From: an uncultured Bacilli bacterium | GTDB lineage: Bacteria; Bacillota_I; Bacilli_A; RF39; UBA660 | DNA length: 64,000 nt | Reading direction: 5' to 3' | NCBI GenBank assembly: GCA_910583685.1 | Contig: CAJTXY010000001.1 | Coordinates: forward strand, 4,755 to 68,754 | Position numbers and translations under genes: made by a program | The notes under the pieces: model-generated | The model's input: the letters and a program-made list of their open reading frames with translations, nothing else | Database searches by the model: none | Told to the model about the DNA's origin: nothing | Shown here: positions 22,223 to 37,716 of the stretch, piece after piece | How positions within the stretch are numbered: the stretch's first letter is position 1 | Layout: each line of letters starts with the position of its first letter

Positions 22223-23311
22223 TTACTTGCTTTCCCTTGAAATATTAAGGAGAATCCCCATACTGACCATACTAATTAACAAGCTACTTCCGCCATAACT
22301 TAAAAATGGTAAAGTTACACCTGTTACAGGAATTAGTCCAACGACAACCATTAAGTTCATAAGGGACTGAAAAATGATTTGAAACACCATACCAAATGCT
22401 AGGTATTTCGGAAATTCCTCTTTTGCATTTAATGCAATTTTAATACCACGATATAAAAGGAGAACAAAAAGTCCACATACGATTACTACTCCCATCACAC
22501 CAAACTCCTCTGAAATGATAGAAAAAATAAAATCTGTCTGTGGTTCAGGCAAATAGAAATGTTTCTGAATGGAATTCAAATAACCATTTCCTAAAAGACC
22601 ACCTGGTCCTATTGCATAAAGAGACTGAATAATTTGAAATCCTGTTCCTAGTGCGTCACTCCAAGGATCTACGAATGAAGTAATTCTATCCATTCTATAA
22701 GGTGCAATGATGATTAAAATAACAATACCGATAATGCCTATTGCTCCACATCCCATAAAAAACTTCATATTCACTCCTGCAATAAAAAGAAGAGAAACGA
22801 TGGAAACCACTAAAATTACGCCTGTTCCTAGGTCTGGTTGTAGCATAATGAGGCCAAAGAAGAAAAGTGTTACTCCAAGTATGGGAAAGACACCGTCTTT
22901 TAAACTTTTTAAAAACTTATTACTCTTTTCTAGATACTTGCTTGTAAAAATAATAAGGCCTAATTTCGCAAACTCACTTGGCTGAATTCCTAAGGAACCA
23001 ATTCCAAACCAGCTTCTACTACCATTACGAATGCTACCAATTCCCGGAATTAGAACTAAAACCAAAAGGATCAAACAAATTAGCAAAATTAGATTGGATT
23101 TTTCTTTGTAAATAGAATAATGAATTTTGGAAATAGACATCATAATAAAAATACCCACCGCCAAAAAGATCGCCTGATACTTAATATAATGAAAACTATC
23201 ATGAAATTTATATTCTGCCCAAATACTAGAGGCAGAGTAGATCATAATCAGACCAAATACTGCTAATGTAATTACGGTTATAAATAAGGTTTTATCCAGT
23301 CCTCTTTTCAT
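22223..23311 (-). CDS. ftsW: SEDS-family peptidoglycan glycosyltransferase (FtsW/RodA/SpoVE)
   Basis: Ten TM helices, QPSEFAKL motif, and a C-terminal GGSSL-like block. Confidence 0.85.
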   Translation of the reverse strand: MKRGLDKTLFITVITLAVFGLIMIYSASSIWAEYKFHDSFHYIKYQAIFLAVGIFIMMSISKIHYSIYKEKSNLILLICLILLVLVLIPGIGSIRNGSRSWFGIGSLGIQPSEFAKLGLIIFTSKYLEKSNKFLKSLKDGVFPILGVTLFFFGLIMLQPDLGTGVILVVSIVSLLFIAGVNMKFFMGCGAIGIIGIVILIIIAPYRMDRITSFVDPWSDALGTGFQIIQSLYAIGPGGLLGNGYLNSIQKHFYLPEPQTDFIFSIISEEFGVMGVVIVCGLFVLLLYRGIKIALNAKEEFPKYLAFGMVFQIIFQSLMNLMVVVGLIPVTGVTLPFLSYGGSSLLISMVSMGILLNISRESK

Positions 23312-23339: not shown

Positions 23340-23385
23340 TATAACGAAAAAAGAACGAAAGAAAAAGGTATCATTCAATGATACC
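23340..23385 (-). terminator. Intrinsic terminator after the 725-aa surface protein gene
   Basis: 7-bp stem GGTATCA/TGATACC with a 5-nt loop, then TTTTTCTTTCGTTCTTTTTTCG on the minus strand, immediately after the stop. Confidence 0.5.
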
Positions 23386-23386
23386 C

Positions 23387-25564
23387 TTATATAATTACGG
23401 TTTGGATTGTTTTTGCAACAGATAACACAACTGAAGTTAATGCATCTGGAATTTCTGTTTTATCCCTTGAAGTGATGCCTCCATTTAATTCACTCTTAAT
23501 TTTGTCAATGTCAATATCAATCATAATATTTACACGATTACCATAACCATCTTTTAATCTTACAGTATCCATCATTGACTCCTCGTATATTTTAGAGAAA
23601 ATTTTGGAATTGCCTACTAATGTCCATCCCCTTGGTAAAAAGACACTTCGATTTGTTGTGATTGTTACTTTTACCTTGCCATCTTCTGTTAGACTATATT
23701 TAATATCAGAAATCTCTGGATTCTCTTTGTTGATATCAAACACTTCATATTCTACTTCTGCTATATTTCCAAGTTTATCTTGAACTTTTACTGTAGCCTT
23801 CGTATTTTCCGTAAACACTTTAGAGATTGATTTTTGATCATTTGATAAAGTCCATCCATTTTTCAAGTCTTCTAATTCTTCATCTGCCGATATCGTTACT
23901 ATTACATCCTTATTTGTTTTGATATGATCTGCATTACTAGTTGTAATTTTGATACCTGATACTTCACGATCTATATTAGAAACTATACATTCTACCTCTA
24001 TTTGATTTCCTGCTAGGTCCTCAATTGTTACTGTTTCTTCACCATTTTCTGTAAACAGCTTTGTAATTTCTGTCTTTGTAGTATTGTAATTCCAATCTTC
24101 ATTTCCTATTACCTTTATTTCTTCATCCGCAATAATTTTTCCAAGTACATCTTTATTGGTTTTTTGCATTGGACTAACCATAAAAATCGCCTTTGGTGGT
24201 GTTTTATCAATGTTATTTATTTCAATTGTAATATAGCCTGTATTTTGATAAGCGTCTGTCAGTTTTACTTTCTCTATCGTGTTTTTCTTATAGACTTTTC
24301 TAAAGACTGTTGAATTCTGCACCATTTGCCAGCCACTTGGAGCGAAAATAGATTTGTTCGTAGTGATAATAACTTCCACATCACCATTTGTAAGTTCTCT
24401 TGTACTATAAGTAATTCCATTTTCTACAATGGCTGGAATTTCTTTACTAATATCAAACACTTCGTAATTTGCCTTCACTGCATTTCCTGCTAAATCTTTT
24501 ATTTCTAGTTCTCCTGTAGTATTGGCAGCGAAAACTTTACTTAATTCTAAACCATTATCTGATAGTTTCCAACCTGAGACTGGTTGTAATTTCTCATTTG
24601 CTGTTATAAAAATAGTGACATCTTGATTCGTCTTTTCTCCATTATTACTACTTTTCACCGTAACAAGTGGTGCGGTTTTATCAATGGTAAATACTAGTGT
24701 TGCTTTTTGATAAGCACAATCTACCACCGTTACTTCGTATTTCCCCTCTGTTTGAAACGAAAGTGTCTTTTCTAAAGATACTGTTTTTCCATTTACCTGG
24801 ATCTCTTTTAGATTTTCTTCCTCAATTGTAAGAATAACATCATAGTTTACAATCGCGTTATTTGCTACTCCTGTTAATATAGGTTTTTTATTGTCATCTA
24901 AAATGATATTTAGGTTATCTAATTTTGATTTTAGTTCCAACTTTACCTTACTATCATCGATATTTTCAACTAAGGCATTTATATTTTGTTTATCTCTATA
25001 TTCTCTTGCCTCTAAAATTTCATCTCTGCTCTTTGCTGCATTTACTTTTTCCTGCAATGTTTCTACTAATTTTCTTATATCAGCATACGGATCTTTTTCA
25101 TCAGGAGAATCTGGATCTGTTGATCCTCCTGGCTTATCTGGTTTATCTGGAGTTTCTGGTTTATCTGGTTGATTTTCATTGTTATTATCAGGATCTGTAC
25201 TTTCTCCAGGTTTACCAGGTGTATCTGGATGGGTTATATTTCCTGAATCCGGATTTTGACTATTTTCATTTCCTGTAATCATATCTGCTACTGGCGGAAT
25301 TGTTACATTTTGATAGACAAAGTTTTGAATTCCTTTGGCATTATTTTGTTGTTTCCAGATATCTTGTGTCAAGTCAGTAGAAGAATTTTCTGTAAGCCCT
25401 TCTTTGGTTTCATTTTCAGAAATCGTTTTCCCTTCTTCTGGTATATATCTATTTTCTACTTCTTCTTCCAATTCTAAATACTCTTCATTTGGATTTGCAA
25501 ATACGAAAGTACCCAATCCTAAAAATAAAATAATCGCAATGATCCCTATTTTTTTCTTATTCAT
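23387..25564 (-). CDS. Large secreted/surface protein with a Pro/Asp-rich linker and at least 4 tandem Ig-like repeats (about 95 aa each)
   Basis: N-terminal signal LGLGTFVFANPNEEY resembles the SipW-cognate GGTFAYFSDKE motif. Low-complexity PDKPETPDKPDKPGG linker. Repeated blocks ...KTNKDV...WxLSxx...SKVFxxNT...ExxVxDISKExP. No LPXTG motif. Confidence 0.7.
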   Translation of the reverse strand: MNKKKIGIIAIILFLGLGTFVFANPNEEYLELEEEVENRYIPEEGKTISENETKEGLTENSSTDLTQDIWKQQNNAKGIQNFVYQNVTIPPVADMITGNENSQNPDSGNITHPDTPGKPGESTDPDNNNENQPDKPETPDKPDKPGGSTDPDSPDEKDPYADIRKLVETLQEKVNAAKSRDEILEAREYRDKQNINALVENIDDSKVKLELKSKLDNLNIILDDNKKPILTGVANNAIVNYDVILTIEEENLKEIQVNGKTVSLEKTLSFQTEGKYEVTVVDCAYQKATLVFTIDKTAPLVTVKSSNNGEKTNQDVTIFITANEKLQPVSGWKLSDNGLELSKVFAANTTGELEIKDLAGNAVKANYEVFDISKEIPAIVENGITYSTRELTNGDVEVIITTNKSIFAPSGWQMVQNSTVFRKVYKKNTIEKVKLTDAYQNTGYITIEINNIDKTPPKAIFMVSPMQKTNKDVLGKIIADEEIKVIGNEDWNYNTTKTEITKLFTENGEETVTIEDLAGNQIEVECIVSNIDREVSGIKITTSNADHIKTNKDVIVTISADEELEDLKNGWTLSNDQKSISKVFTENTKATVKVQDKLGNIAEVEYEVFDINKENPEISDIKYSLTEDGKVKVTITTNRSVFLPRGWTLVGNSKIFSKIYEESMMDTVRLKDGYGNRVNIMIDIDIDKIKSELNGGITSRDKTEIPDALTSVVLSVAKTIQTVII

Positions 25565-25597
25565 AACTCATACTCCCTACTATCCTATGTTATTCAA

Positions 25598-25640
25598 ATA
25601 TATCAAAAAAAAAGAGAAAATTCAATCTTTTTCTCTTTAA
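25598..25640 (-). terminator. Putative terminator between lepB and the 725-aa gene
   Basis: 10-bp stem AAAGAGAAAA/TTTTCTCTTT followed by a T9 run on the minus strand. Confidence 0.4.
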
Positions 25641-25695
25641 ATTTTCTAATTTCTACCATCTGTCTATAAATATGCTGTTATTTTATATAAATAAA

Positions 25696-26283
25696 TTATG
25701 ATATTAATTTGATACGGTTTATAGGAAAAATACGCAATGAGATTTTTCCTGTGATGTCACTTTTTTTAATAAGTCCTATTTTTCTACTGTCTAGGGAGTT
25801 TGTCCTATTATCGCCTAGTACTAAATACATATCTTTGGGTATTACATCATAGCCTATATCTTTTAAATGAAAATCTTTATATTTTAACTTTGTAGAAATA
25901 TACTTTTCTTGATATTTCTTACCGTTAATATGTAACTGGCTGTCTATGATATCGATATGCTCCCCTGGTAGTCCAATAATACGTTTGATTAAATATTTGG
26001 TATCTGCATACTTTAATGAGACTACATCCCCTCTTTCTATTTCAAAAAAGCGGTATCTCAGTTTATTTAAAATCAATACTTCTCCATCTTTTAATGTGGG
26101 ACTCATAGAGTCTCCTACTACTTGGGTGATGGATGCTACATAGAAAATAATAAACAAAATTAATATAATTACAATTGCATACTTTGCTATATCAAAGAAT
26201 AATTCCCGAATATCTAACCAATCCATATAATACTCCTTACTACTATCAGACATCATTATATACCAGCAATTCTTAGAATGCAA
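25696..26283 (-). CDS. lepB: Signal peptidase I (bacterial LepB/S26A type)
   Basis: SM/K catalytic boxes: VVGDSMSPTLKDGEVLI and YLVLGDNRTNSLDSR. Confidence 0.8.
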   Translation of the reverse strand: MHSKNCWYIMMSDSSKEYYMDWLDIRELFFDIAKYAIVIILILFIIFYVASITQVVGDSMSPTLKDGEVLILNKLRYRFFEIERGDVVSLKYADTKYLIKRIIGLPGEHIDIIDSQLHINGKKYQEKYISTKLKYKDFHLKDIGYDVIPKDMYLVLGDNRTNSLDSRKIGLIKKSDITGKISLRIFPINRIKLIS

Positions 26284-26296
26284 GAGTATTTAGTTA

Positions 26297-27898
26297 CTAT
26301 TCTATTTGTTGTTCTTCTGATGTTACGTGATCACTTATAATTTCCTGTTCTTGTGGTGGTACTGTTACATTCGTGGTGGAGTAATCGCTTACATTGCCAT
26401 TTTCTTCTGCTGGCGGCTCATTTATTACAGCAGGCGGCTCCTCTTCTTGTTTTTTTGTCACTTGAAAAGTAAGGTAACCATCTAATACTTGATAGGTATC
26501 ATTTTGTCTTTCCCAGGCAAATTTGTCACAGAGAGTGTTCATTAATGAAATTACATCCATTTGTGCAACATCTCGAGTGTCATAGTAAACTTGAATTTCA
26601 TAGGAATCCGTTTGTTCTATTATAGATACTGGCATAATAAAGGCTTCATTATAACCTTCTTTTAATACAATTTCTAACAGTATGCTACCGTTCTCATCCC
26701 CTACTACAAATTGTTTTTTATCACTAAGGGCGGCCTCATAAGTCATCGATACCCAATTTAAAATATCTTCCTGTTCTAGTAATTGTGCTTTTAGGGCATT
26801 AGAAAGAGTAGAATTCTGATTAATTGCTGTTTTAAAGAATTCTTTTTTCTTATCAGACTCTGGAGAATATAGTGTAACAGAAGAGTCCGTAACTAATTCA
26901 TATGCCTTTTCCATTAGACTCTCATCCAATACTAGTTTTCCTTCTGTTTTATCAAGAGTGATTCCTGGTACTACTATTTGTCCATTCCATAGTGCATAAA
27001 TACCATCTGTAGAGGCAATATAGTTAGAAATAAGATAGTAATTATCACGATTATTAAAACAATAATATTCTGCTAAATAGTATTCAAATGTCTCTTCAAT
27101 GGATGTTTTCTCATCTGTTGTAAAATACATAACATTTTTATCCACTTGGTTTATATTCTCATAATAGGTACGTGCGTAGCCAAGGAAGCTATCTAAAACG
27201 ACATAATTATAGTCATAATAATCACGGTAATCAATTTGAAGTCCTAAAATTTCATTTGGATTTTCGCAAGCTTTGATGTAACTTTCTATTTCCTCTTTAT
27301 AAGCATAAAGATATGGGTTATTTATCAACAAATTTTGAATTAGACTATCTTGAAATTGCAACATAGTTTCATCTGTGGTATCCTTCTCTTCTAATTCTAC
27401 AGATTTGGAAATAGGTTCTAAGTAGTGATATTCTTTATATAAAAAATATGCTTCATTCTCTATACTTTCCAATGCCGATACCGAAACATCCAACTTGCTT
27501 TCTTCTGTTATAATTTCACTTGTTTGTAAATTGCATATAAATTCTACTTTTATTTTTTCTTCTTCCTCAGGAATGATGAGGCTATTTTCAACTAAAGTCT
27601 CACAACCATTAGGAAGTACTAATTTATAGTTAGAGCTCTCATTTGTCATTACATTAGTACTGTCCTTAGGGATGAAAAGAGAGAATGTTGCTGTTTCTGT
27701 CTCAAGTTGTTCAAGGGTTATAGTGCCAACATCACTTTGTTTTTGAAAGGCTAATGTAGAATGATATTTTAAATAATCTGTTCTTTTTTCTTGATATTTT
27801 GCATTAGACTCAGGACAATGAAAAAGAAAGAAAGATACAAAGAATAAAAAGACAAGACAACTTGTTTGAATGGTACTTTTATATACTTTATTTTTCAT
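26297..27898 (-). CDS. Secreted protein of unknown function (533 aa, acidic, Tyr-rich)
   Basis: Signal peptide with an SNA|KY cleavage site. No recognised domains. Confidence 0.55.
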   Translation of the reverse strand: MKNKVYKSTIQTSCLVFLFFVSFFLFHCPESNAKYQEKRTDYLKYHSTLAFQKQSDVGTITLEQLETETATFSLFIPKDSTNVMTNESSNYKLVLPNGCETLVENSLIIPEEEEKIKVEFICNLQTSEIITEESKLDVSVSALESIENEAYFLYKEYHYLEPISKSVELEEKDTTDETMLQFQDSLIQNLLINNPYLYAYKEEIESYIKACENPNEILGLQIDYRDYYDYNYVVLDSFLGYARTYYENINQVDKNVMYFTTDEKTSIEETFEYYLAEYYCFNNRDNYYLISNYIASTDGIYALWNGQIVVPGITLDKTEGKLVLDESLMEKAYELVTDSSVTLYSPESDKKKEFFKTAINQNSTLSNALKAQLLEQEDILNWVSMTYEAALSDKKQFVVGDENGSILLEIVLKEGYNEAFIMPVSIIEQTDSYEIQVYYDTRDVAQMDVISLMNTLCDKFAWERQNDTYQVLDGYLTFQVTKKQEEEPPAVINEPPAEENGNVSDYSTTNVTVPPQEQEIISDHVTSEEQQIE

Positions 27899-27899
27899 A

Positions 27900-28508
27900 T
27901 TACTTTCCTCCTTTTAATTGTACTGCTGAATAATCAACGGTCACTACCTGTTTTGATATTTCATTTTTCTCTTGATATTCATAATAAGGAATTTCTTGAT
28001 TATGATAAACTAGATTATCTCCCTTATACTTCACAATCAGCTTATAATAGGTATTTTTTCCCTCATTAGGTGCTTTTACTGTTTCTAATTTTATTTCATT
28101 TAAAGTTCTTTTTCCCGTTAAGTCAATCTCTTCATAAGTGCCTTCTTCCCCGCTCTTAGCATATAAGCCAACGATTTCAAAATCAGTGGCAACTGAAATG
28201 GAAAGCACGAAGAAAACACTTACTTCAAATTCCGTAGAGGCTTTGAAATAATAAGGGATTTCAGTGGCTGGACGATAGTGTCCTGCCTCACAAATCTCCT
28301 CACCTTCTCCAGGATTACATCCATCTACATTAAAGTAGTCAATATCGATATTGAACTTTGCTACACGTGCTGAAGATTCGCTACTAAGCATAGAAACATA
28401 TTTAGAATAAGTTACTACTGTGGTAAATAGTAATAAAACTCCAATATACATTCCTAAATAACGATAGAATTTTCTTCTGAAATGTTCATTATGAAATAAA
28501 TTTTTCAC
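27900..28508 (-). CDS. Small secreted protein with a SipW-cognate-like N-terminal motif (TasA/camelysin-like substrate candidate)
   Basis: TM anchor, then YSKYVSMLSSESSARVAKFNIDI. It shares the [ST]YAKY...SARVA[KV][FW] motif with the 32125 gene. It sits immediately downstream of a sipW. Confidence 0.5.
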   Translation of the reverse strand: MKNLFHNEHFRRKFYRYLGMYIGVLLLFTTVVTYSKYVSMLSSESSARVAKFNIDIDYFNVDGCNPGEGEEICEAGHYRPATEIPYYFKASTEFEVSVFFVLSISVATDFEIVGLYAKSGEEGTYEEIDLTGKRTLNEIKLETVKAPNEGKNTYYKLIVKYKGDNLVYHNQEIPYYEYQEKNEISKQVVTVDYSAVQLKGGK

Positions 28509-28514
28509 AGATAA

Positions 28515-29174
28515 TCACCCTCTTCGTTGTTTTCTTTTGGCCCTCTTCTTTCTTTTTTTATTTTTTTTATTCTTTTTTATTGAAGTAGTTAGAATTTCCT
28601 TTTTTGCACTTATTTTCTTTCGGCTTTCATTTGGATTTTCTAAATACTTTAAAAACTCTTGATATTCTTTAGTATCCGCTAACACAACTTCTTCGTTTGG
28701 CATTGTCAAATAAGAAATGGTAGCTATGAGTGTAATTATTATAATCACGATCAGTGGATTTTTTAACAGAGCAATCACTTTCCCTGCTCCTCTTATATGA
28801 AAGATATATTTTCCAACAATTTTGTCCTTTTTTGTTTTGCCATCTTCTGTATGATTATGGTCTCCTTTTGTTATCACTGCTTCTTTTTCGGCGGCAACAA
28901 TACGATGGGTTACAAAACTTCCTTCCTTATCATAAAAAGTGATAATATCATCTTTTTTATACTTTTTGTCTTTCATATCAATAATGATATAATCACTTTT
29001 TTGCAAGGTCGGTTCCATAGAAGATGATACGACTTCTAACATTGCATAACCAAAAAATGGAGCAAGCGGTTTTTTCAATATCTTGAAACAGACAAAATTA
29101 TAAATATTTATTAAAATAATTAAAGTCAGGAAAAGGCCACTAAATATTACGGTTATTTTTCTGAATCTTTTCAT
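28515..29174 (-). CDS. sipW: SipW-type signal peptidase I (archaeal/ER Sec11-like, S26B) with a highly basic C-terminal tail
   Basis: FGYAMLEVVSSSMEPTLQKSDYIIID...THRIV...TKGDHN matches SipW/Sec11 catalytic boxes. C-terminal KKNKKNKKRKKRAKRKQRRG tail. Confidence 0.8.
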   Translation of the reverse strand: MKRFRKITVIFSGLFLTLIILINIYNFVCFKILKKPLAPFFGYAMLEVVSSSMEPTLQKSDYIIIDMKDKKYKKDDIITFYDKEGSFVTHRIVAAEKEAVITKGDHNHTEDGKTKKDKIVGKYIFHIRGAGKVIALLKNPLIVIIIITLIATISYLTMPNEEVVLADTKEYQEFLKYLENPNESRKKISAKKEILTTSIKKNKKNKKRKKRAKRKQRRG

Positions 29175-29183
29175 TTTTCCCTC

Positions 29184-32030
29184 CTACTTACAAAGTTTAT
29201 TTGTTTTAAAATGAAGGGCAACTGATAAAAAATAACGATCGTTTAAAGTTTCATCAAATTTTGCTTGTGCTGCTTGATTTCCAATTAGTGTATCTAATTT
29301 ATCGGACTCAGAATCCATCTCTACCCATTTCCAGAAAATCGTAATTGGTGCTTCTTCTCCTTTTTTAAGGGTAATTGGCTGATTGAAATTGATTTTCTTT
29401 CCTTTGTAATTAGGAAGAGTTGGATCTACATCATAATTTAGAACCTGATATTGATCTAGATTTCCATAATAGTAATAGGCTTCTTTTCCTAAGGCAGGAA
29501 TATGTCTTACAATATACCCCATATTCAAGCACCCTTTTTTAGGAATACAAATGGTATCTTCTAATAATGTCATTCCTGTAAGGGTAATGGAGTCTGCATA
29601 TTCATTTTTAAAGTTTGCAATGTAGTAGCCTTTGGCACCTGGGTAAATGACTTTATCTTTATGATATTGGTTGTAGTATTCCTCATTATGGAAAATCGGA
29701 ACATCTTTTAGCCATAAGACCTCTTCCAAAAGATCATCTGTTATGGGAATAGAAACCGAGTCATAAATTGCAAATAATTCTAAATCATCATCCAAGTTTT
29801 CAATTATTTTTTTATCTGACCGATTATATAGAATTGGTCCATCTATAGTCTTACTATAGCCAAGGAACTTATAATATTTACAGTGATCCTTCTCATCTAA
29901 CTTATATGGTTCATCATAGTCAGATAAGTCGATCTTTTCATCAGCAGAAATTTCGAATTGATAGTGATCTTCTGCTGCGTTGAATTGACCACCATTAGCA
30001 GAAAGAAAAACTGAATATTTACGAATTATTTCAATAGGAATCGATAAATTTTCAAATTCCTTTCCATTTAATACTCCACGAATAGTCAAAGTGGCTCCTC
30101 CAGGATTATTTCCATAAACCCCAATTGGTAAATAGCTTGGTGCTTCCTCAGAAGAGTCATAGGCAAGATATTCGATATTCTGATCGTTAGTAGAAACAAT
30201 GATACAAGTGTCTTGTTGCTTCAAAGAACATATTTTAATTTCCTTTTTATCATCACTTTCACTGACGGAAACTTTTCCTGTAAATATATTTGTATTTAGA
30301 ATAACATCTATATTTCCGCGAATATTTCCCGTTTCATCTTTAGAAACACTCATCTGGTATTTATCTTTTGAGGAATTTAAGTATGCTTTCACATCATCAA
30401 ATATAACTGTTGTTGTAGTAGAGGCATCTTGGTAATCTAGAGAGAGTTTTATACTCTGATTCAGAAATTTGTCCTTTAAAGTCTCGTCTGGTTTTAATAC
30501 TAAAACTCCCTTTTCAGGATTTTCCACTGAAATTACAGACGAAAATTTTTCGGAAATACTAGCACTAATTTTTGAATGATCATAATCAGTCGTTTCTATT
30601 CCATTCTTATATACTTTATATAAGATTGCAAAATCCAAGTTTTCTGTATACATCGAAAATTGGTATAAATTGCGATCAAATTTCAAAGTATATTTCGATT
30701 CCCTGTAAATATTAACAATGTAGTCTTTTAATGTTCCATCTTCAGCTCGAACTGTTATTACGACCTTGTTATCTCCATACTTTAAGTCTAAATCCTTTAA
30801 AGAAGATACTTTCTTTCCATTGTAGGTAATTTCTGCTTTGCTACTCTCGGCAATTGCTTTGATATCAATTTTATCTGTATTTGCATCTACTACTACCTTG
30901 TACTCTGTTTTCTCTTTTGAAAAATCGGGACTCAATTTACCTACACTTACTTGAATATCTTTCAAGTAGGCATTTGTATCTTTTTTCGCATCTTCCTTTT
31001 TCTCACGATGAATTGTAATGGTATAGCTTTTTGTTGAACCATCTTCCGCCCGAACTGTTATTACTACTGTGTTGTCACCATACTGAAGAGGAAAATCTTT
31101 TAGCGAAGATAGCTTCTTTCCATTATAGGTAATCACTGCGTTGCCACTTTCGGCAATTGCTCGTATATCGATTTTGTCAACACTGGATCCTACCTGTACA
31201 TAATAAGATGTACGATAAGGAGAGAATTTAGGAGACAAAGTTCCTGTACTTAGTTTAATATCTTTTAAGTTGCAATTTGCATCTTTATGTTTCTTTATTG
31301 TAATTTCATTTATTACTGTCAACAAGTATTTGGCCTTATATGTTTTGCCACGATAGCGAAGTGTTAATGTGATTGTTACTTTTCCTGTTTTAAATGCAGT
31401 AATTTTAAAATAACCATCTTTCAGCTCCACTTTTGCAATATGCTCATCACTAGAAGAAACCTTAGGACGGCCGCTTAGCCCAATAAATTGGTAGGTTACA
31501 AGCTTCTCATTCGTTTCTGCTAAGTTTATTGTCCCTTTTTGAGAAGATAGCTTAATAGAAGGTGCCACTTTTGTCTTTCCTACTTTAGCCAAAAGCGTCG
31601 CTTCATAGTGCATATGATTTGTTGTAGTTTGTAAGACTACTGTAACCGTTCCTTTTTTATGAGTATTGATTACAACATATTTTCCTACTACATAGCAGGT
31701 TGCTACAGAGGCATCACTTGTAGTACAAGAAAACTTTTGAGGTTTTATTTTTTTATATGAAAATCCTACTTTAGCTTTTTCTCCCACAGAAAGTTCCACG
31801 TAGTTTCTATCAAATTTTAACTCTTTATTTCGACGGGTTTCTAAATCTAGAATTTCTTTCTCAATGGTATAATCCCCTTGATTAAAGAACTCATCCCCAA
31901 TTTTGCCAAAAAACATAGAAGTACAACTGCAACTGGTAAGTAAAGTTATCAGAATAAGAATAATCATAATAGCATAGATGATAATATGTCTCATTCGGTT
32001 TTTGTCTTCTTGCTTTTCATCATGTATCAT
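29184..32030 (-). CDS. Giant surface lipoprotein (948 aa) with two cadherin-like beta-sandwich domains plus additional Ig-like domains
   Basis: Lipobox LLTSC. Two about 90-aa repeats: LKDI.LS.G.LSP.FS...T.Y.V.V.....KIDI.AIAES..A.ITYNGKK.SSLKD..L.YGDN.VVITVRAEDG..K.Y...I.RE, matching the cadherin-like domain pattern. Confidence 0.7.
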   Translation of the reverse strand: MIHDEKQEDKNRMRHIIIYAIMIILILITLLTSCSCTSMFFGKIGDEFFNQGDYTIEKEILDLETRRNKELKFDRNYVELSVGEKAKVGFSYKKIKPQKFSCTTSDASVATCYVVGKYVVINTHKKGTVTVVLQTTTNHMHYEATLLAKVGKTKVAPSIKLSSQKGTINLAETNEKLVTYQFIGLSGRPKVSSSDEHIAKVELKDGYFKITAFKTGKVTITLTLRYRGKTYKAKYLLTVINEITIKKHKDANCNLKDIKLSTGTLSPKFSPYRTSYYVQVGSSVDKIDIRAIAESGNAVITYNGKKLSSLKDFPLQYGDNTVVITVRAEDGSTKSYTITIHREKKEDAKKDTNAYLKDIQVSVGKLSPDFSKEKTEYKVVVDANTDKIDIKAIAESSKAEITYNGKKVSSLKDLDLKYGDNKVVITVRAEDGTLKDYIVNIYRESKYTLKFDRNLYQFSMYTENLDFAILYKVYKNGIETTDYDHSKISASISEKFSSVISVENPEKGVLVLKPDETLKDKFLNQSIKLSLDYQDASTTTTVIFDDVKAYLNSSKDKYQMSVSKDETGNIRGNIDVILNTNIFTGKVSVSESDDKKEIKICSLKQQDTCIIVSTNDQNIEYLAYDSSEEAPSYLPIGVYGNNPGGATLTIRGVLNGKEFENLSIPIEIIRKYSVFLSANGGQFNAAEDHYQFEISADEKIDLSDYDEPYKLDEKDHCKYYKFLGYSKTIDGPILYNRSDKKIIENLDDDLELFAIYDSVSIPITDDLLEEVLWLKDVPIFHNEEYYNQYHKDKVIYPGAKGYYIANFKNEYADSITLTGMTLLEDTICIPKKGCLNMGYIVRHIPALGKEAYYYYGNLDQYQVLNYDVDPTLPNYKGKKINFNQPITLKKGEEAPITIFWKWVEMDSESDKLDTLIGNQAAQAKFDETLNDRYFLSVALHFKTNKLCK

Positions 32031-32124
32031 TTTATTCGCATCCTTTCTTAATATTTAAGTTTCAAATAAACCTACGAGTTATTTTTCATAGGCTTATTTG
32101 GAAGTTAAATAAACTTCCACTTTA

Positions 32125-32835
32125 TTATTTAGTTGGTTTCTTTTCAGATTGAACAACATCAATCTTAACGCTAAGTGTAACATTTGCTTGTGCTCCTGTT
32201 GAACCATCTTTAGCAATACCATTTCCTAAATTAGTATCTTCTGCGTCATCACCATCGATAACCCATTCCCAACCGATTACATAAGTATGGTTAGGAGCAG
32301 TATTTGCTGCGTAAACTCCATTAAGCTCAGATCCAATTCCATTGATTAAGGCATTAATGTCGTTGTACTTTTCAGCATCAGTAAAGGCAAGAGATTGGAA
32401 TGTAGCTCCTGTTAGAGTTTGTCCAGTTACATCTCTTAGATAATATTTCATTTGACCATTACCTTTTGTAGTAATTTCATCAACTGAAGAATTATCGCTT
32501 ACTGTTAATTCATAGTTTGTTTCTGGTTTATTTTCACCTAAAGTGAATGTATAAATTCCAGAAGTACCTGGTGCTACCACTTTATCAGTACCATTTGCAG
32601 ATTCAACATCAACAGCATTATCTTGTCCTGCTAATGTAGTAGTATAAGATGCTGCAAATAAATTGATTTCGATTTCCTTATCGTTTTCAAATCCCCAAAC
32701 GGCAACACGTGCAGAATCAGTGAAAGAAAAATCTCCCACATATTTTGCATAAGTACCACTTACAGAATAACTAGTAATACCAACAAGTGCTAACAATGCA
32801 CAAAGAACTGTCATTTTCTTTTTCATCATTGTCAC
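32125..32835 (-). CDS. Secreted protein with a SipW-cognate-like N-terminal motif (TasA/camelysin-like substrate candidate)
   Basis: Signal then SGTYAKYVGDFSFTDSARVAVWGF, where GTYAKY resembles the GTFAYF motif of the SipW-cognate class. Immediately downstream of the second sipW. Confidence 0.55.
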   Translation of the reverse strand: MTMMKKKMTVLCALLALVGITSYSVSGTYAKYVGDFSFTDSARVAVWGFENDKEIEINLFAASYTTTLAGQDNAVDVESANGTDKVVAPGTSGIYTFTLGENKPETNYELTVSDNSSVDEITTKGNGQMKYYLRDVTGQTLTGATFQSLAFTDAEKYNDINALINGIGSELNGVYAANTAPNHTYVIGWEWVIDGDDAEDTNLGNGIAKDGSTGAQANVTLSVKIDVVQSEKKPTK

Positions 32836-32890
32836 CTCCTTTCTTAGATGTCATTTATATGTAAACCCTATAAAAGGTGTTTACCAGTAA

Positions 32891-33544
32891 TTATTTATTT
32901 TGCTTTGACTTTTTAGAATTCTTATTTTTTTCCTTTGTTTCTTGTTGTTCTCTCATTTTCTTAAATTCTAAAAACTCCTGACGTTCTCTTTCTCTTTCTT
33001 TTTTCGTAGAAATAGAAAAGCCAATTACAAATATTAAGGTAATTCCTAAAAATACTATAATAATAGTTGTTGGTTCTGCCAAACTATTCATAATAGAACC
33101 AATACTTGGAAATCTAGCAATATAAAGCCCTTCTACATCGCTAAATTCGACTAGATTTTTATCCTGTGCTGAGTTATTGTCACCTTTTGTAATAAAATAC
33201 TTCTCTCCATCTTCTTCTACAATATCAATGATACGATGGGTCGTAACAGTATTTTCAGCATCACGGAAAGCGATGACATCTTCCTTTTTTAGTGTTTTGG
33301 GATTTACCATTTTAGTTAGTACTAAATCACCTTTATGTATTTTGGTCTCCATTGAATTAGAAAGAACAATAAATGGTTTATACCCAAATACATTTGGCAC
33401 CTTGTCCTTGTTAATTTTTGACTGAACCATAATATATAAGTTCATAATTAAAATAGGCACCAATAGTAAGCATATTACAACAAAAATGATATTGCTTATT
33501 TTTTGATACCATACTTTTGATTTTTCATTTTCCATACTAATCAC
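32891..33544 (-). CDS. sipW: SipW-type signal peptidase I (second copy) with a charged C-terminal tail
   Basis: FGYKPFIVLSNSMETKIHKGDLVL...THRII...TKGDNN. C-terminal KKERERERQEFLEFKKMREQQETKEKNKNSKKSKQNK tail. Confidence 0.8.
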   Translation of the reverse strand: MISMENEKSKVWYQKISNIIFVVICLLLVPILIMNLYIMVQSKINKDKVPNVFGYKPFIVLSNSMETKIHKGDLVLTKMVNPKTLKKEDVIAFRDAENTVTTHRIIDIVEEDGEKYFITKGDNNSAQDKNLVEFSDVEGLYIARFPSIGSIMNSLAEPTTIIIVFLGITLIFVIGFSISTKKERERERQEFLEFKKMREQQETKEKNKNSKKSKQNK

Positions 33545-33863: not shown

Positions 33864-34256
33864 TTAAATTTCTGAACTCATCATTAGCTTATAAATTGCT
33901 TTGATGTTTTCTTTCTTATCGTGGTTCATTTCAATAAAGTTAAGATGTAGTTGATAGCCACTATCTAGGCTAAATAATAACTCTACCTTTCCTGGTTTAT
34001 AGTTAATTGCACTAGACGATATGGAACGATATGGAATAATATGAATTTTCTTGTAATATACACCTAGGGTATCTCTATCAAATAGAATCATCCTTTTGCT
34101 TGTAAAAACTACATAGTCTTTACTGTTCTTATAAGCAAAAACGAATTTTTCTTTTGCATCAATATATTCTCTTGCATATTCCTCTAACTCTTCTTCTTTT
34201 ACTTCATATTTAAAGTCAAAGTATTTTGCCAATTCTTTAAATTTAATGTATGCCAT
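33864..34256 (-). CDS. Small cytoplasmic protein, possibly a bacterial PH (YokE-like) domain
   Basis: Beta-rich pattern ...FVFAYKNSKDYVVFTSKRMILFD...KKIHIIPYRSISS...VELLFSL. Start set at MAYIKF; weak assignment. Confidence 0.35.
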   Translation of the reverse strand: MAYIKFKELAKYFDFKYEVKEEELEEYAREYIDAKEKFVFAYKNSKDYVVFTSKRMILFDRDTLGVYYKKIHIIPYRSISSSAINYKPGKVELLFSLDSGYQLHLNFIEMNHDKKENIKAIYKLMMSSEI

Positions 34257-34710
34257 ACACTCACCTCTTTTATTATCAAAGTTATTGTAACACACTTAAT
34301 TACAGAAGGAAAGCGCAATGTAAAATTAGACATTTTATTGACAGGAGCTATTTTCTGATATTTACATTTTGAATACATTATTATTTACGTTTTTTGTCAT
34401 ATTTTCGACATTTTTTGACGTTTTCGAATCCCTTTATTTTACTTTTCTATTTAACACTATATTTTTTATTGACACTATATTTGTACTCGGTTTTTACTGC
34501 TTTTCGTTTTGTCTCATAGATAGATTATTGAACACTACCGCCTTATTCCTATAAGTTTTTTTACAAATAAAAAGAGGAAAATAGATTGTATTTCTTCTGT
34601 CTTATTGTTATCATACTACAAGACTTCACGCACTTCCTCTTAGTGATCTATTGTACTCATTTTACCATTTTTTCTTCGAGTCATCCCCACATATTCTATC
34701 AATAAATTTC

Positions 34711-34737
34711 TAATAAAAAAAGGCGTTTTTGCGCCTT
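34711..34737 (-). terminator. Intrinsic terminator after mraY
   Basis: Stem AAGGCG/CGCCTT with a TTTTTG loop, followed on the minus strand by TTTTTTTATTAG, directly after the mraY stop. Confidence 0.6.
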
Positions 34738-34739
34738 AT

Positions 34740-35720
34740 TTATAACCATACTCCAAAGATAATTCCACTCATTGCTAGGATCAAACCGCCTACCCAAAAT
34801 AGCTTTACAATATCAGTTTCTGCCCATCCTAACTTTTCAAAATGATGATGAAGCGGTGTCATTAAAAATAATTTTTTGTGTAATACCTGTACCCAAAATG
34901 TCTGTATGATAACACTTAATGTCTCAATTACGAAGACACCTGCTACTACTAGCAACGTAAGCTCTCTATGCGTAAGAATAGCAATCGCAGCCATTGCCCC
35001 TCCTAGGGCAAGGGAACCTGTATCACCCATAAATACTTTTGCAGGATGCGTATTATAGATCAAAAATCCTATTAAACTTCCCACCAAAATTAAGCAAAAT
35101 AGACCAATGTCCTCGAAACCGACCATCAGAGATATTAGACTAAAAGCAATAAAGGCAATCGCAGAAAGACCACCTGCTAAGCCGTCTAAACCATCTGTTA
35201 AATTAACTGCATTCGAAGCTCCCACTAATACAAAGAGAATAAACAAACCATAAAGCCAGCCCATTTCAATATCAATATTTAATGTGCCAACAACCCAGGA
35301 AGTTTGCCCCCCACTACGCATATATATGTAGAAAAAGCCAATTGCAATTAAGACTTGCATAAATAGCTTTTGATAGGTAGTAAGTCCCTCATTATTTTTC
35401 TTTCGAATCGATAAAAAATCATCTAAAAAGCCAATTACAGCATACCCTACAAATACTAAAAGTACAATTCCTAGATTCGATGAGTATGAAACCTTATTGG
35501 TTAATAGTAAGCCCAAAGTAGTAATTACAGTTGGGGCAATAAAAATCAGTCCTCCCATCGTCGGCGTTCCCGATTTTTTTCTATGGTTTTCTCCTACAAA
35601 TATACTGATCGTTTGCCCTATTTTTAATCTTTTCAAAATTGGTACTAAAATAAGGCCTAAAACCGCTGAGGTTAAAAATCCAATCATAATTGCAAATACA
35701 GCTTTTGTTAAAAGCAACAT
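34740..35720 (-). CDS. mraY: Phospho-N-acetylmuramoyl-pentapeptide transferase
   Basis: TPTMGG and NAVNLTDGLDGLA motifs, 10 TM. Confidence 0.9.
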   Translation of the reverse strand: MLLLTKAVFAIMIGFLTSAVLGLILVPILKRLKIGQTISIFVGENHRKKSGTPTMGGLIFIAPTVITTLGLLLTNKVSYSSNLGIVLLVFVGYAVIGFLDDFLSIRKKNNEGLTTYQKLFMQVLIAIGFFYIYMRSGGQTSWVVGTLNIDIEMGWLYGLFILFVLVGASNAVNLTDGLDGLAGGLSAIAFIAFSLISLMVGFEDIGLFCLILVGSLIGFLIYNTHPAKVFMGDTGSLALGGAMAAIAILTHRELTLLVVAGVFVIETLSVIIQTFWVQVLHKKLFLMTPLHHHFEKLGWAETDIVKLFWVGGLILAMSGIIFGVWL

Positions 35721-35811
35721 TATTCTTCACTCCATTTCTTCGTAAGTATTATACCACATAAATTTACTCTATATTAGAAAACCCCTAATTTTAGACAAAA
35801 CTTTACATTCG

Positions 35812-37716
35812 TTAGTTTAGTAACAATCGAACAGTCCCACCTTCTGCTAATTTTTCACCAGCTTCTGGCGATTGTGAGATGACTTTTTCACCAGTTCCAG
35901 AATACTCAACAGTAAAGTTTTCTAACCTTTTTTTAGCCTCTTTTACATCCTTTCCAACTACATTTGGTACTTTGTAAGTAATTTTATCAGTCCATTCCAA
36001 GTCTTTTGCCATCTCTCCATCTTGCTTTTCAATCCCTAAGGCATCGATAATATCTAAGAGTATTTTTCTTGCTACTGGTGTAGTAGTATAGCTAGAAAGT
36101 TGAGCTGTATTTTTAGGATTATCAATCGCAATATATAAAACAGCTTCTGGATCATTTGAGGGAACGATTCCTACAAATGACATTATATAATTATTCACCA
36201 GATATCTACCATCTTCTACCTTTTGTGCTGTACCCGTTTTTCCGCCGATCCGGTAGCCTTCAATAAAAGCAGCCTTTCCTCCCCCTTTTGCAACGACACT
36301 TTCTAGGGCTCTTCTCATAATCTTAGATGTTTTTTTGCTAATTGTTTTTCTTACGACTTTTGGGTCTGTTTTTTGGATCACATTCCCGGTTTCTTTCTCC
36401 ATTACATTTTTCACAACATATGGTTGATATAAATTCCCTCCATTTAAAACGGCAGATACTGCTGTTACCTGTTGGATCGGCGTGACACTTACTCCTTGTC
36501 CAAAAGCAGTGGTTGCTAATTCTACATTTCCTACTTGATCTAAGTTAAAAATAATCCCCTTTCCTTCTCCATTTAAATCAATCCCTGTTTTTTCACCAAA
36601 TCCAAATAAGTCTAGATAGGAAAATAGCTTTTCCTTCCCAAGGAGTTGCCCCATTTTTACAAAACCTGGGTTGCAAGAGTTTTGGAGGACTTGTAAAAAG
36701 GTTTGATGCCCATGGCCTCCCGCTTTCCAACATTTGATACGGGCAGTATCCACCTGAACAGATCCAGAGTCAAAAAACTCATCTTTGTCCAAGTCAATTA
36801 ATCCTTCTTCTACTACAGCTGATGTCGTAATAATTTTAAAGGTGGATCCTGGTTCATAAGATGCCCAAATAGGTAAGTTTCTAGAAAGTTCTTCTGTTGA
36901 ATAGTTTTGATAGTTATTAGGATCGAAGTTTGGTCTACTACTCATTCCTAAGATTTCTCCTGTCTTAGGATTCATCACTACAGCTAAGGCCATTTCTGGT
37001 GAAAACATATCCACTACATTGTCCAGTTCTCGTTCTAATGATTTTTGAATATTAATATCAATTGTTAGTTGAATATTTAATCCATCTTGAGGCGCTACAT
37101 AAACGTCTGATAGGTTCAAGCGATTTCCCTTGGCATCTGAAAAGTATTTGATTGCTCCAGCTTCTCCAGTTAAGTATTTGTCATACTCTAATTCTAGCCC
37201 TGAGAGGCCCTGATTATCAATTCCAACATATCCTAAAACGTGCGAAAGTAAGTTGCCATACGGATAATACCTCTTAGCCTCTTTTACTAAATACACCCCT
37301 TCTAACTCTAATGCTGAAATCTTATCTGCTATCTCAAATGAAAGTCTTCTTCCTTCTGGGTGAACTCTTTCAATAGAAGTTTGTTTGCTCACGTGTGCAT
37401 ACATCTCTTTATAACTCACATTCAGAATGTCAGCAAGTTTCTTTGCTACTTCTTCTTTATTTTTGATTTGGTTGGGAATTAATACAAGTGAAGTTGTAGT
37501 TAGATTATCGGCAAGCACAACCCCATTTCTGTCCAATATTAGCCCACGACTTGCTTCAATTGGCAGATCTCTACTCCATAAATCTTTTGCAAGTGCAGAA
37601 AGTTTTTTGTAATCAAACACTTGAATATAGAAAACTTTAAATACGACTAAAAAGAATAATAAAGTAAAAATTAGAAATGTAATACGAATTCTAGCATCAA
37701 TCTTTTTTACAAACAT
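35812..37716 (-). CDS. Class B penicillin-binding protein (FtsI/PBP2B-like transpeptidase) with one C-terminal PASTA domain
   Basis: STFK, SCN and KTGT motifs. C-terminal PASTA-like VPNVVGKDVKEAKKRLE...ISQSPEAGEKL. Confidence 0.85.
   Translation of the reverse strand: MFVKKIDARIRITFLIFTLLFFLVVFKVFYIQVFDYKKLSALAKDLWSRDLPIEASRGLILDRNGVVLADNLTTTSLVLIPNQIKNKEEVAKKLADILNVSYKEMYAHVSKQTSIERVHPEGRRLSFEIADKISALELEGVYLVKEAKRYYPYGNLLSHVLGYVGIDNQGLSGLELEYDKYLTGEAGAIKYFSDAKGNRLNLSDVYVAPQDGLNIQLTIDINIQKSLERELDNVVDMFSPEMALAVVMNPKTGEILGMSSRPNFDPNNYQNYSTEELSRNLPIWASYEPGSTFKIITTSAVVEEGLIDLDKDEFFDSGSVQVDTARIKCWKAGGHGHQTFLQVLQNSCNPGFVKMGQLLGKEKLFSYLDLFGFGEKTGIDLNGEGKGIIFNLDQVGNVELATTAFGQGVSVTPIQQVTAVSAVLNGGNLYQPYVVKNVMEKETGNVIQKTDPKVVRKTISKKTSKIMRRALESVVAKGGGKAAFIEGYRIGGKTGTAQKVEDGRYLVNNYIMSFVGIVPSNDPEAVLYIAIDNPKNTAQLSSYTTTPVARKILLDIIDALGIEKQDGEMAKDLEWTDKITYKVPNVVGKDVKEAKKRLENFTVEYSGTGEKVISQSPEAGEKLAEGGTVRLLLN

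Follow-up and report, generated by a model that had tools for sequence, protein, structure and literature searches.

A conserved operon with two SipW-like signal peptidases in uncultured gut Bacilli and Clostridia that probably encodes a cell-anchored, heteropolymeric fibre

Eight co-directional open reading frames (ORFs) on the minus strand, at positions 23387-33544 of a 64,000-nt stretch of DNA (the window; contig CAJTXY010000001.1, positions 4,755-68,754, assembly GCA_910583685.1), form a cluster around two SipW-like signal peptidases in an uncultured Bacilli bacterium (RF39; UBA660). All coordinates below refer to the window, and all features of the operon lie on its minus strand. The first gene in transcription order is sipW2 (sipW-2; 32891..33544), which encodes an endoplasmic reticulum (ER)/archaeal-type (S26B) signal peptidase I of 217 aa. 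It is followed by A (32125..32835), which encodes a protein of 236 aa predicted to be a major (shaft) subunit, and, directly 3' of the A stop codon, by two hairpins, hp1 and hp2 (32063..32118). The next gene, G (29184..32030), encodes a predicted base or anchor subunit of 948 aa whose C-terminal domain (residues 776-948; 29187..29705) is homologous to the body of A. After a gap of 9 nt come a second S26B signal peptidase gene, sipW1 (sipW-1; 28515..29174; 219 aa), the gene for the small B protein (27900..28508; 202 aa), predicted to be a minor subunit, and that for C (26297..27898; 533 aa), predicted to be the distal (tip) subunit. The last two genes are lepB (25696..26283), for a classical bacterial type I signal peptidase, and D (23387..25564), for a secreted repeat protein of 725 aa; an AT-rich hairpin with a run of eight T residues lies between them (25605..25636). 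A sequence-only reading of this DNA had given the coordinates and lengths of all eight ORFs exactly, and had interpreted them as two tandem modules of SipW, TasA/camelysin-like protein and giant adhesin with a LepB between them.

The arrangement was compared across 80 loci obtained from a scan with one genome per GTDB species. The hosts of all 80 are uncultured, gut-type metagenome-assembled genomes (MAGs), labelled either as Bacilli, Tenericutes or Mollicutes or as Oscillospiraceae, Lachnospiraceae and other Clostridia. The order sipW2-A-G-sipW1-B was found in 50 of these species-level loci, and most of the remaining ones are cut by contig ends or carry the Clostridial variant described below. 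Recurrence in so many independent species-level genomes indicates that this order is not due to chance. sipW2 lies upstream of A in 71 loci, G stands at position 2 in 50 or more, and B was detected in 52. sipW1 was always the gene immediately before B, a median of 7.5 nt away; the gaps on both sides of sipW1 measure about 7 nt across loci, and the downstream genes are tightly packed. A C-like gene of 520-1200 aa lies directly 3' of B in 47 of 50 B-bearing loci, and in the other three it was lost to a contig end or missed by the ORF filter. The gene after B is too divergent for phmmer in most loci and was recognized by its size and N-terminus. Since this gene trails B so regularly, the conserved core comprises six genes, sipW2-A-G-sipW1-B-C, rather than five. 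lepB was found at the cluster in 10 of the 80 loci and D in 7, always behind lepB, and on these counts both are regarded as lineage-specific neighbours outside the machine. A near-identical operon is also present in two Logan assemblies, and SRR26637628 is one of the samples in which the operon occurs. Thus, the coupling of a sipW gene to a small and a giant protein, proposed from the window, is kept in relatives, and the suggestion that it departs from the Bacillus tapA-sipW-tasA architecture was borne out. No paper that describes this operon arrangement was found in the literature.

Both SipW-like proteins were confirmed to be of the S26B type. The model for archaeal-type signal peptidase I, TIGR02228, was matched by sipW2 with 100.9 bits and by sipW1 with 73.9 bits (curated cut-off 51.85). 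The Bacillus SipW equivalog model was missed by both (101 and 63 bits, respectively, against a cut-off of 190), and the two enzymes are therefore described as SipW-like and not as Bacillus SipW orthologues. S26A peptidases use a Ser-Lys pair in catalysis, and S26B peptidases have Ser and His instead. The predicted catalytic residues are S64 (S-M-E), H103 (T-H-R) and D122/D128 (GDNN..D) in sipW2, and S52, H90 and D105/D111 in sipW1; these labels come from alignment with the published SipW motifs, to which we take the residues to correspond. The S-M, THR and GDNN..D boxes are at least 90% conserved among the orthologues (n=82 for sipW2, n=61 for sipW1), so that the earlier assignment of both peptidases to S26B, which hinged on the Ser and His residues, holds for each of them. 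The two proteins share 32% identity (BLASTP E 2e-13). Hydropathy indicates N- and C-terminal membrane segments in sipW2. Past the second membrane segment both enzymes carry long charged tails, K/E-rich in sipW2 (32891-33000) and K/R-rich in sipW1 (28515-28640; KKNKKNKKRKKRAKRKQRRG), the sequences of which are not conserved among orthologues.

Protein A starts with a signal peptide, whose predicted cleavage site reads T28-Y-A30|K31-Y; the segment S41-ARVAVW-47 comes next, and the remainder is a beta-sandwich body in which VVAPGT.G.Y, W.W and D..DT.LGN occur as motifs. Cleavage is predicted at T-Y-A|K-Y because small residues occupy positions -3 and -1. Within the A family, T28, A30 and Y32 (SGTYAKY) are invariant and are followed by eight variable residues and then by the likewise invariant A42-R-V-A45 and W47; the conserved positions of the body are F60, P89-G90, E105, W189, W191, D200 (in D..DT.LGN) and Q229. 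B contains the motif T33-Y-S|K-Y followed by S46-ARVAKF, and its divergent body keeps the P/E positions and a terminal ..YSAvQ strand, with W.W and DT.LGN absent. BLASTP was found to pair TYAKYV..SARVAVW of A with TYSKYV..SARVAKF of B (E 0.003), and hhalign of the A family with B gave a probability of 96.7% (E 3.8e-10), which identifies A and B as remote homologues and confirms that the shared, non-canonical SipW-like motif first noticed in the window is real. Written as a regular expression and applied to the 80 loci and the window, this motif was present in 82 of 90 A-family ORFs, in 51 of 51 B-family ORFs and in 11 of 2968 other ORFs, the latter being mostly antisense artefacts or further C-like genes. 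C carries a motif of the same kind, P-E-S-N-A|K-Y in the window, with the predicted cut between A33 and K34. The C family consensus is P.S.SKY...aL.Y...LY.L, and its N-terminus consists of a hydrophobic stretch, [ST]-x-[AST]-K-[YF] and aL.Y...LY.L. hhalign aligned C with A over the signal and motif only (57% probability, E 1e-4), and the large body of C is not A-like. By eye, the sites SGTYA|KY of A, TYS|KY of B and S.S|KY of C are colinear with the site G-T-W-A|A-F of TasA, with S or T at -3 and A, S or T at -1; the TasA site itself is confirmed by PDB entry 8aur, in which the TasA chain begins at A28.

Membership of A and B in the TasA/camelysin family, as had been proposed, did not survive comparison with the family models. 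Neither protein matched any Pfam or NCBIfam model at E<=10, including Peptidase_M73, TIGR04088 and TIGR04090. The SipW-cognate signal model TIGR04088 (..GGT[FW]A[YA]F[SN]D..) was matched by none of A, B, C and D at E<=10, and the BsaA model TIGR04090 by no protein of the window. The TasA, camelysin, SipW-cognate signal and BsaA models matched 0 of 93 A-family members, and hhalign of TasA (sequence verified against 8aur) with A, B and G gave probabilities below 1%. A search of PDB sequences with the A-family profile returned no TasA and only a chance match to RhoGDI (E 0.77). The A family is nevertheless large: more than 268 homologues were found in a set of 5.8 billion proteins, none of which has a Pfam domain or a name. 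Family sizes in this report come from the 80 loci and a full HMMER scan; a word-indexed search yielded only 3 sequences for the G C-terminal domain and 8 for B. At the structure level, the best PDB match to the model of A in Foldseek was the TasA fibre (E 3.5e-4, probability 0.99), and donor-strand pilins (FimA, the Saci_0406 thread) also appeared in its list of matches.

G begins with K/R-rich residues (10-15), a hydrophobic stretch (16-31) and a lipobox-like L-L-T-S-C34. All but a few of 54 G orthologues retain L[IL]TSC, and a permissive lipobox pattern was found in 84 of 96 full-length G representatives; by lipobox criteria, G is a predicted lipoprotein. The lipobox is followed by two conserved elements, the motif FFGKIGD.F.N[EQ]G and an N-terminal region of ~250 aa in which a sub-threshold Big_2 match is the only one, then by two Cadherin-like domains (PF12733; 97.9 bits against 24.2, E 4.8e-28), a middle region, and a stretch reminiscent, by eye, of the Listeria-Bacteroides-type (Flg_new) repeat. 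Thus, the description of G as a cadherin-like lipoprotein stands, and the Big_2 domain (PF02368) for which it had also been considered remains below threshold (16.9 bits against 22.8). A relationship between A and the C-terminus of G was first hinted at by BLASTP. hhalign of A residues 56-233 with G residues 776-948 then gave a probability of 97.7% over 155 columns (E 2.5e-12), and the motifs LF, [VI].[AY]PG..G.Y, W.W and D..DT.[LI]GN are common to the two. The G domain has no counterpart of the signal, of the cleavage motif or of ARVAK, and because these N-terminal parts of A are missing it is read as "acceptor-only". Its AlphaFold2 model has a predicted local distance difference test score (pLDDT) of 89 and a predicted template modelling score (pTM) of 0.83, and strands and helices succeed each other in it as they do in A. 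A HMMER scan of 1.84 billion representatives returned 118 clusters with this domain, which was found nearly always at the extreme C-terminus of proteins of 700-1700 aa, the short entries being fragments. Conserved cysteines occur in B (C64, C73), in C (two) and in the G C-terminal domain (C53, C59, C172); the hosts are presumably anaerobic, and these extracellular cysteines may form disulfides or other links.

The Clostridial versions of the operon have the order sipW, A, A', sipW, B-like, (B2), giant protein and small BsaA-like protein. In all 11 of these, A', the product of the position-2 gene, has an acceptor-type body (DIF.., APGT.G.Y.F, W.WPFE..D..DT.LGN) and contains neither the cleavage motif nor the N-terminal ARVAK motif. 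Nine of the 11 A' proteins end in a PxTGD sorting signal with a hydrophobic stretch and a basic tail, and in the other two a membrane segment at the N-terminus is combined with a Pro/Thr-rich linker. Models for sorting signals reached their cut-offs in two A' proteins (TIGR01167, 18.7 against 15.9 in locus L057; srtB_target, 19.2 against 18.15 in L049). In the window, no LPXTG-type sorting signal was found in A, G, B, C or D, and no sortase among the operon proteins. Three predicted anchoring devices, a lipid, a membrane segment and a sortase signal, thus appear to be combined with one and the same acceptor-only domain. This constant association of an acceptor-only domain with an envelope anchor is the strongest argument that the position-2 protein forms the cell-proximal end of a polymer. 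The last small gene of the Clostridial operons matches TIGR04090 (E 7e-12 to 1e-3, below the 60-bit cut-off; L049:10268-10795, L063:12992-13522, L073:10405-10944) and has a canonical-looking GTTFALM signal, suggesting that bona fide BsaA-like and A-type genes coexist in one operon. Compared by hhalign with A, B and G, these BsaA-like genes gave probabilities of 2-11% or less.

The two hairpins behind A are conserved in both sequence and structure. hp1 consists of the stem GGAAGTT/AACTTCC (32100-32118) and hp2 of a 15-bp stem, CAAATAAGCCTATGA/TCGTAGGTTTATTTG (32063-32100). The hp2 stem aligns and pairs in 51 of 51 loci, and RNAalifold recovered 15 pairs, 10 of them with compensatory changes. 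The median energy of the best hairpin is -19.5 kcal/mol behind A, compared with -10.25 kcal/mol in the spacer between sipW2 and A. In the window, the hairpin element has 1 match against 0.01 expected, and no Rfam family matches the post-A hairpins. A role as a leaky terminator or a 3' stabilizer is proposed, by which A would be made in excess over the products of the downstream genes, in keeping with its predicted role as the major subunit.

Read by analogy with the systems discussed below, the operon probably encodes a heteropolymeric fibre that is anchored to the cell and depends on SipW, as those of TasA and BsaA do. That a giant protein anchors a fibre- or pilus-like structure had already been suggested from the window, and this is still the best reading, on the basis of the acceptor-only G, the anchors and the conserved operon. 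In the proposed mechanism, A, B and C would be exported by Sec and cut by the two ER-type peptidases at [ST]-x-[AST]|K-[YF]. The motif is present in the substrates and the active-site residues in the enzymes; gene order suggests that the one is cleaved by the other, and that sipW2 would be paired with A, and sipW1 with B and C. Cleavage would free an N-terminal segment, which in A and B contains the near-invariant ARVAK[WF], and this segment would insert as a donor strand into the beta-sandwich body (PG.G.Y, W.W, D..DT.LGN) of a neighbouring subunit. Because A has both donor and acceptor elements, it is assigned to the repeating shaft. G has an acceptor only, at the end of a stalk of ~740 aa that is presumably tethered to the membrane by the lipobox, and is therefore assigned to the base that ends the polymer. 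B, with an A-type donor and a divergent body, and C, with the motif and an unrelated body, are placed at the far end as adaptor and tip. The assembled order would then be G at the base, A in n copies in the shaft, and B and C distally, with the conserved hairpin keeping A transcripts above the downstream ones. This detailed order is put forward with lower confidence than the fibre itself, and polymerization as such is inferred from the distribution of the motifs and by analogy with TasA and BsaA.

Several observations weigh against such a fibre. No sequence model ties A, B or G to TasA, camelysin or BsaA. The G-domain model had no PDB match at E<=1e-3 in Foldseek, TasA being outside its top 50, and it is confident and apparently a complete beta-sandwich by itself. 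In the monomer model of A, the segment 40-50, corresponding to the putative donor strand, has high confidence but is not assigned as a strand by DSSP, and the corresponding N-terminal segment of C differs from ARVAK. The addition of subunits at the membrane, as proposed for BsaA, would also be awkward with an acceptor that lies ~740 residues from its lipid anchor; they might instead be added distally, on the G stalk. The completeness of the G domain in particular would suit an export and maturation set without any polymer, in which the four proteins remain monomers, on the surface or secreted (adhesins or a coat), with an unusual common signal that requires SipW, and the A-like domain in G is no more than a module for binding or folding that A and G have in common. 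What is firmly established is limited to the peptidases and the common signal motif, and no fibre-specific family was matched. Even so, this explanation is unlikely, as it would leave four features without a cause: the near-invariant ARVAK right after the cleavage site in A and B, the position-2 protein that is without this segment yet always bears one of three predicted anchors, the conserved post-A hairpin, which is typical of major-subunit overexpression, and the donor-strand fibre as the best PDB match of A.

The cell-anchored fibre can be compared with SipW-dependent systems that have been characterized. TasA of Bacillus subtilis assembles by donor-strand exchange (PMC9674648). In the tapA-sipW-tasA operon, as here, a SipW-type peptidase adjoins its substrates, and TasA shares with A the colinear G-T-[WY]-A|, behind which lies a segment that forms a strand in TasA and would do so in A; the body, which in A may be jelly-roll-like as in TasA, ends in ..ATQ. 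Homology to TasA is regarded as unproven, since TasA was matched by only one of the two structure models, that of A and not that of the G domain. The sipW-bsaA-bsaB-bsaC operon of Clostridium perfringens encodes donor-strand-exchanged, membrane-anchored oligomers, for which N-terminal donor-strand exchange coupled to SipW cleavage has been proposed; TasA/BsaA paralogues have been found in operons with LPXTG proteins, and most C. perfringens strains carry an LPXTG-bearing bsaB-like gene (PMC11580942). The bsa operon and the present one both open with a sipW gene and encode a set of small beta-sandwich paralogues along with a large accessory protein, and in both one polymerizing subunit, predicted in the present case, is accompanied by an anchor-bearing paralogue. 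The bsa operon has one SipW, whereas two SipW paralogues are found here; the N-terminal lipoprotein anchor, the stalk of ~740 aa with its C-terminal acceptor-only domain and the SipW-type motif on the large protein C itself are further differences. Unlike in BsaA, no N-E-K isopeptide triad is established for the present operon.

The closest experimentally studied systems, TasA/TapA, CalY/CapP and BsaA, serve as scaffolds of a matrix and include an accessory nucleator (PMC10151520, PMC13082335, PMC11580942), and by their example A could form fibres that are shed into a matrix, with G as a nucleator or chaperone like TapA or CapP, and B and C as matrix accessories. This released scaffold is quite unlikely, less likely than monomeric surface proteins. 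TapA provides TasA with a strand, but G, with its acceptor body, has no donor motif, and both G and its Clostridial counterparts bear anchoring signals, although shedding after assembly would still be compatible with them. A fibre that stays attached to the cell through G accounts better for these features.

What, then, is new about this operon? SipW-dependent fibres with paralogous subunits are known already. The features that distinguish the present operon are: 1) subunit families that escape all current models, 2) paired SipW paralogues as a fixed feature, 3) a lipoprotein stalk with an acceptor-only end, 4) a large substrate that bears the cleavage motif, and 5) a conserved hairpin behind the major-subunit gene.

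Resemblances to pili of other classes were also considered. In chaperone-usher pili (Fim, Pap), the order of subunits is set by the same logic, whereby each subunit has a donor strand, an acceptor groove or both, and FimH and PapG are two-part terminal subunits whose pilin domain is without a donor strand. A stem-loop behind the major-subunit gene raises its stoichiometry in Fim and Pap. FimA and Pap subunits are among the weak structural matches. Unlike these systems, however, the present operon has no chaperone or usher, is processed by S26B peptidases and belongs to a monoderm host, and its acceptor-only subunit would be anchored to the cell instead of located at the tip. The likeness is best taken as one of analogy, not of homology. 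With sortase-assembled Gram-positive pili, the operon would share the encoding of a tip, a shaft and a base together with a dedicated processing enzyme in duplicate classes, and the attachment of the base subunit to the envelope; the Clostridial versions even place an LPXTG-like signal on the base. Subunits would be joined here by non-covalent strand insertion after signal-peptide cleavage, and not by transpeptidation as in sortase pili. A pilus of the type IV/class III signal-peptide kind was rejected, as no ATPase or platform gene is present and only 5 of 93 family members gave a weak match to TIGR04205. Ena-type spore appendages were not among the structural matches.

Studies of SipW-dependent fibres (TasA, CalY, BsaA) have treated them as scaffolds of the biofilm matrix and concern a handful of cultivated species of Bacillus and Clostridium. 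The operon described here suggests that the SipW-fibre principle may have been elaborated into a pilus-like, cell-anchored organelle of several subunits, carried by dozens of uncultured gut species whose surface structures are essentially unknown. Its subunit families are invisible to annotation, having no Pfam or NCBIfam model and no name, and the fibre would give a defined role to the paired SipW paralogues and new profile models for gut metagenomes. The way in which the four structural proteins divide donor and acceptor elements between them provides a directly testable order of assembly, and the three alternative anchors on one acceptor-only domain amount to a natural experiment on fibre attachment. 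It is possible, although at present rather doubtful, that the operon represents a new class of monoderm pilus, with C as the tip, B as the adaptor, A as the shaft and G as the lipid- or sortase-anchored base, assembled without chaperone, usher or sortase. If so, the two SipWs, each specific for its own substrates, would act as gatekeepers that release a donor strand only once the next acceptor has docked, and the acceptor-only base would terminate growth and thereby set the length of the fibre. The subunits would then represent a new fold family, convergent with TasA or very distant from it, that is widespread in gut Bacilli and Clostridia.

The two genes at the 3' end of the cluster bear on the literal form of the earlier model, a tandem duplication of sipW, TasA/camelysin-like protein and giant adhesin, with lepB in between and D as the second giant substrate. 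The identity of LepB was borne out (TIGR02227, 157.1 bits against a cut-off of 47; Peptidase_S26, E 1.4e-43). The gene lies downstream of both modules rather than between them, and probably encodes a housekeeping enzyme that processes D. D has at least five tandem repeats of ~80 aa (E 6e-17 to 2e-5 in a segment-versus-rest comparison), and nothing relevant to either C or D was found in Pfam or NCBIfam at up to E 10. The signal of D, which had been taken for a SipW-type one, reads as a conserved LGLGTFVFA|NP with an ordinary V-x-A site at -3/-1, as judged from the N-termini of 7 orthologues, and adjoins lepB. C, and not D, is therefore the large partner of the second module, since C has the cleavage motif and follows B almost invariably, and D is confined to a few loci. 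The paralogy of the two SipWs and the remote homology of A and B do make an ancient duplication of a sipW-subunit pair plausible, and this part of the proposed duplication stands. The giants are not copies of one another: G has an A-like domain at its C-terminus, the body of C is unrelated to it, G and D share nothing, and G and C likewise share nothing beyond the features described. With D always behind lepB and carrying a V-F-A|N signal, lepB after both modules, and A and B outside the TasA/camelysin family by every model, the literal tandem model is very improbable, and the six-gene core of a cell-anchored fibre fits the locus better.

The signal region of D and its orthologues in L003-L007, L013 and L042, (L)GTFVFA[NG][PS], is conserved beyond what an ordinary signal peptide needs and is loosely like the canonical SipW motif GGTFAYF. 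An extra, stand-alone A-like gene was observed immediately 5' of lepB in L013, L031, L039 and L042, with no adjacent SipW detected, and is followed after lepB by D in L013 and L042; on the contig common to L039 and L040 the stand-alone A-like gene lies ~7 kb past a full operon. This placement is a hint that the processing of some A-like proteins may fall to lepB or to a SipW elsewhere. Of the terminator that had been placed between lepB and D, the hairpin (AGAGAAAA/TTTTCTCT) and its T8 run are indeed present at 25605-25636, and are weakly terminator-like, below the threshold of the terminator scan. Clear terminators were found 3' of D (23364-23388) and 5' of the cluster, after mraY (34720-34737).

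In the window, the operon is flanked upstream by genes for an FtsI-like penicillin-binding protein and mraY (34740-37716) and downstream by ftsW/rodA (22223-23311). This division and cell-wall neighbourhood was considered as a functional clue and dropped, because it is not conserved in other loci. The MAGs of L002, L009, L010, L019 and L080 are titled "uncultured Muribaculaceae" (Bacteroidota) despite their Firmicute-type operon, probably owing to mislabelling or mis-binning. Just upstream of sipW2, at 33864-34295 on the minus strand, lies a gene for a bacterial PH-domain protein of 143 aa (bPH_1, E 2.7e-14). Its homologues were found 5' of the operon in L001-L007; in L013 and L042 they lie 3' of lepB and D, and in L039 3' of lepB. 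A bPH_1 gene accompanies the cluster in 11 loci, in varying position.

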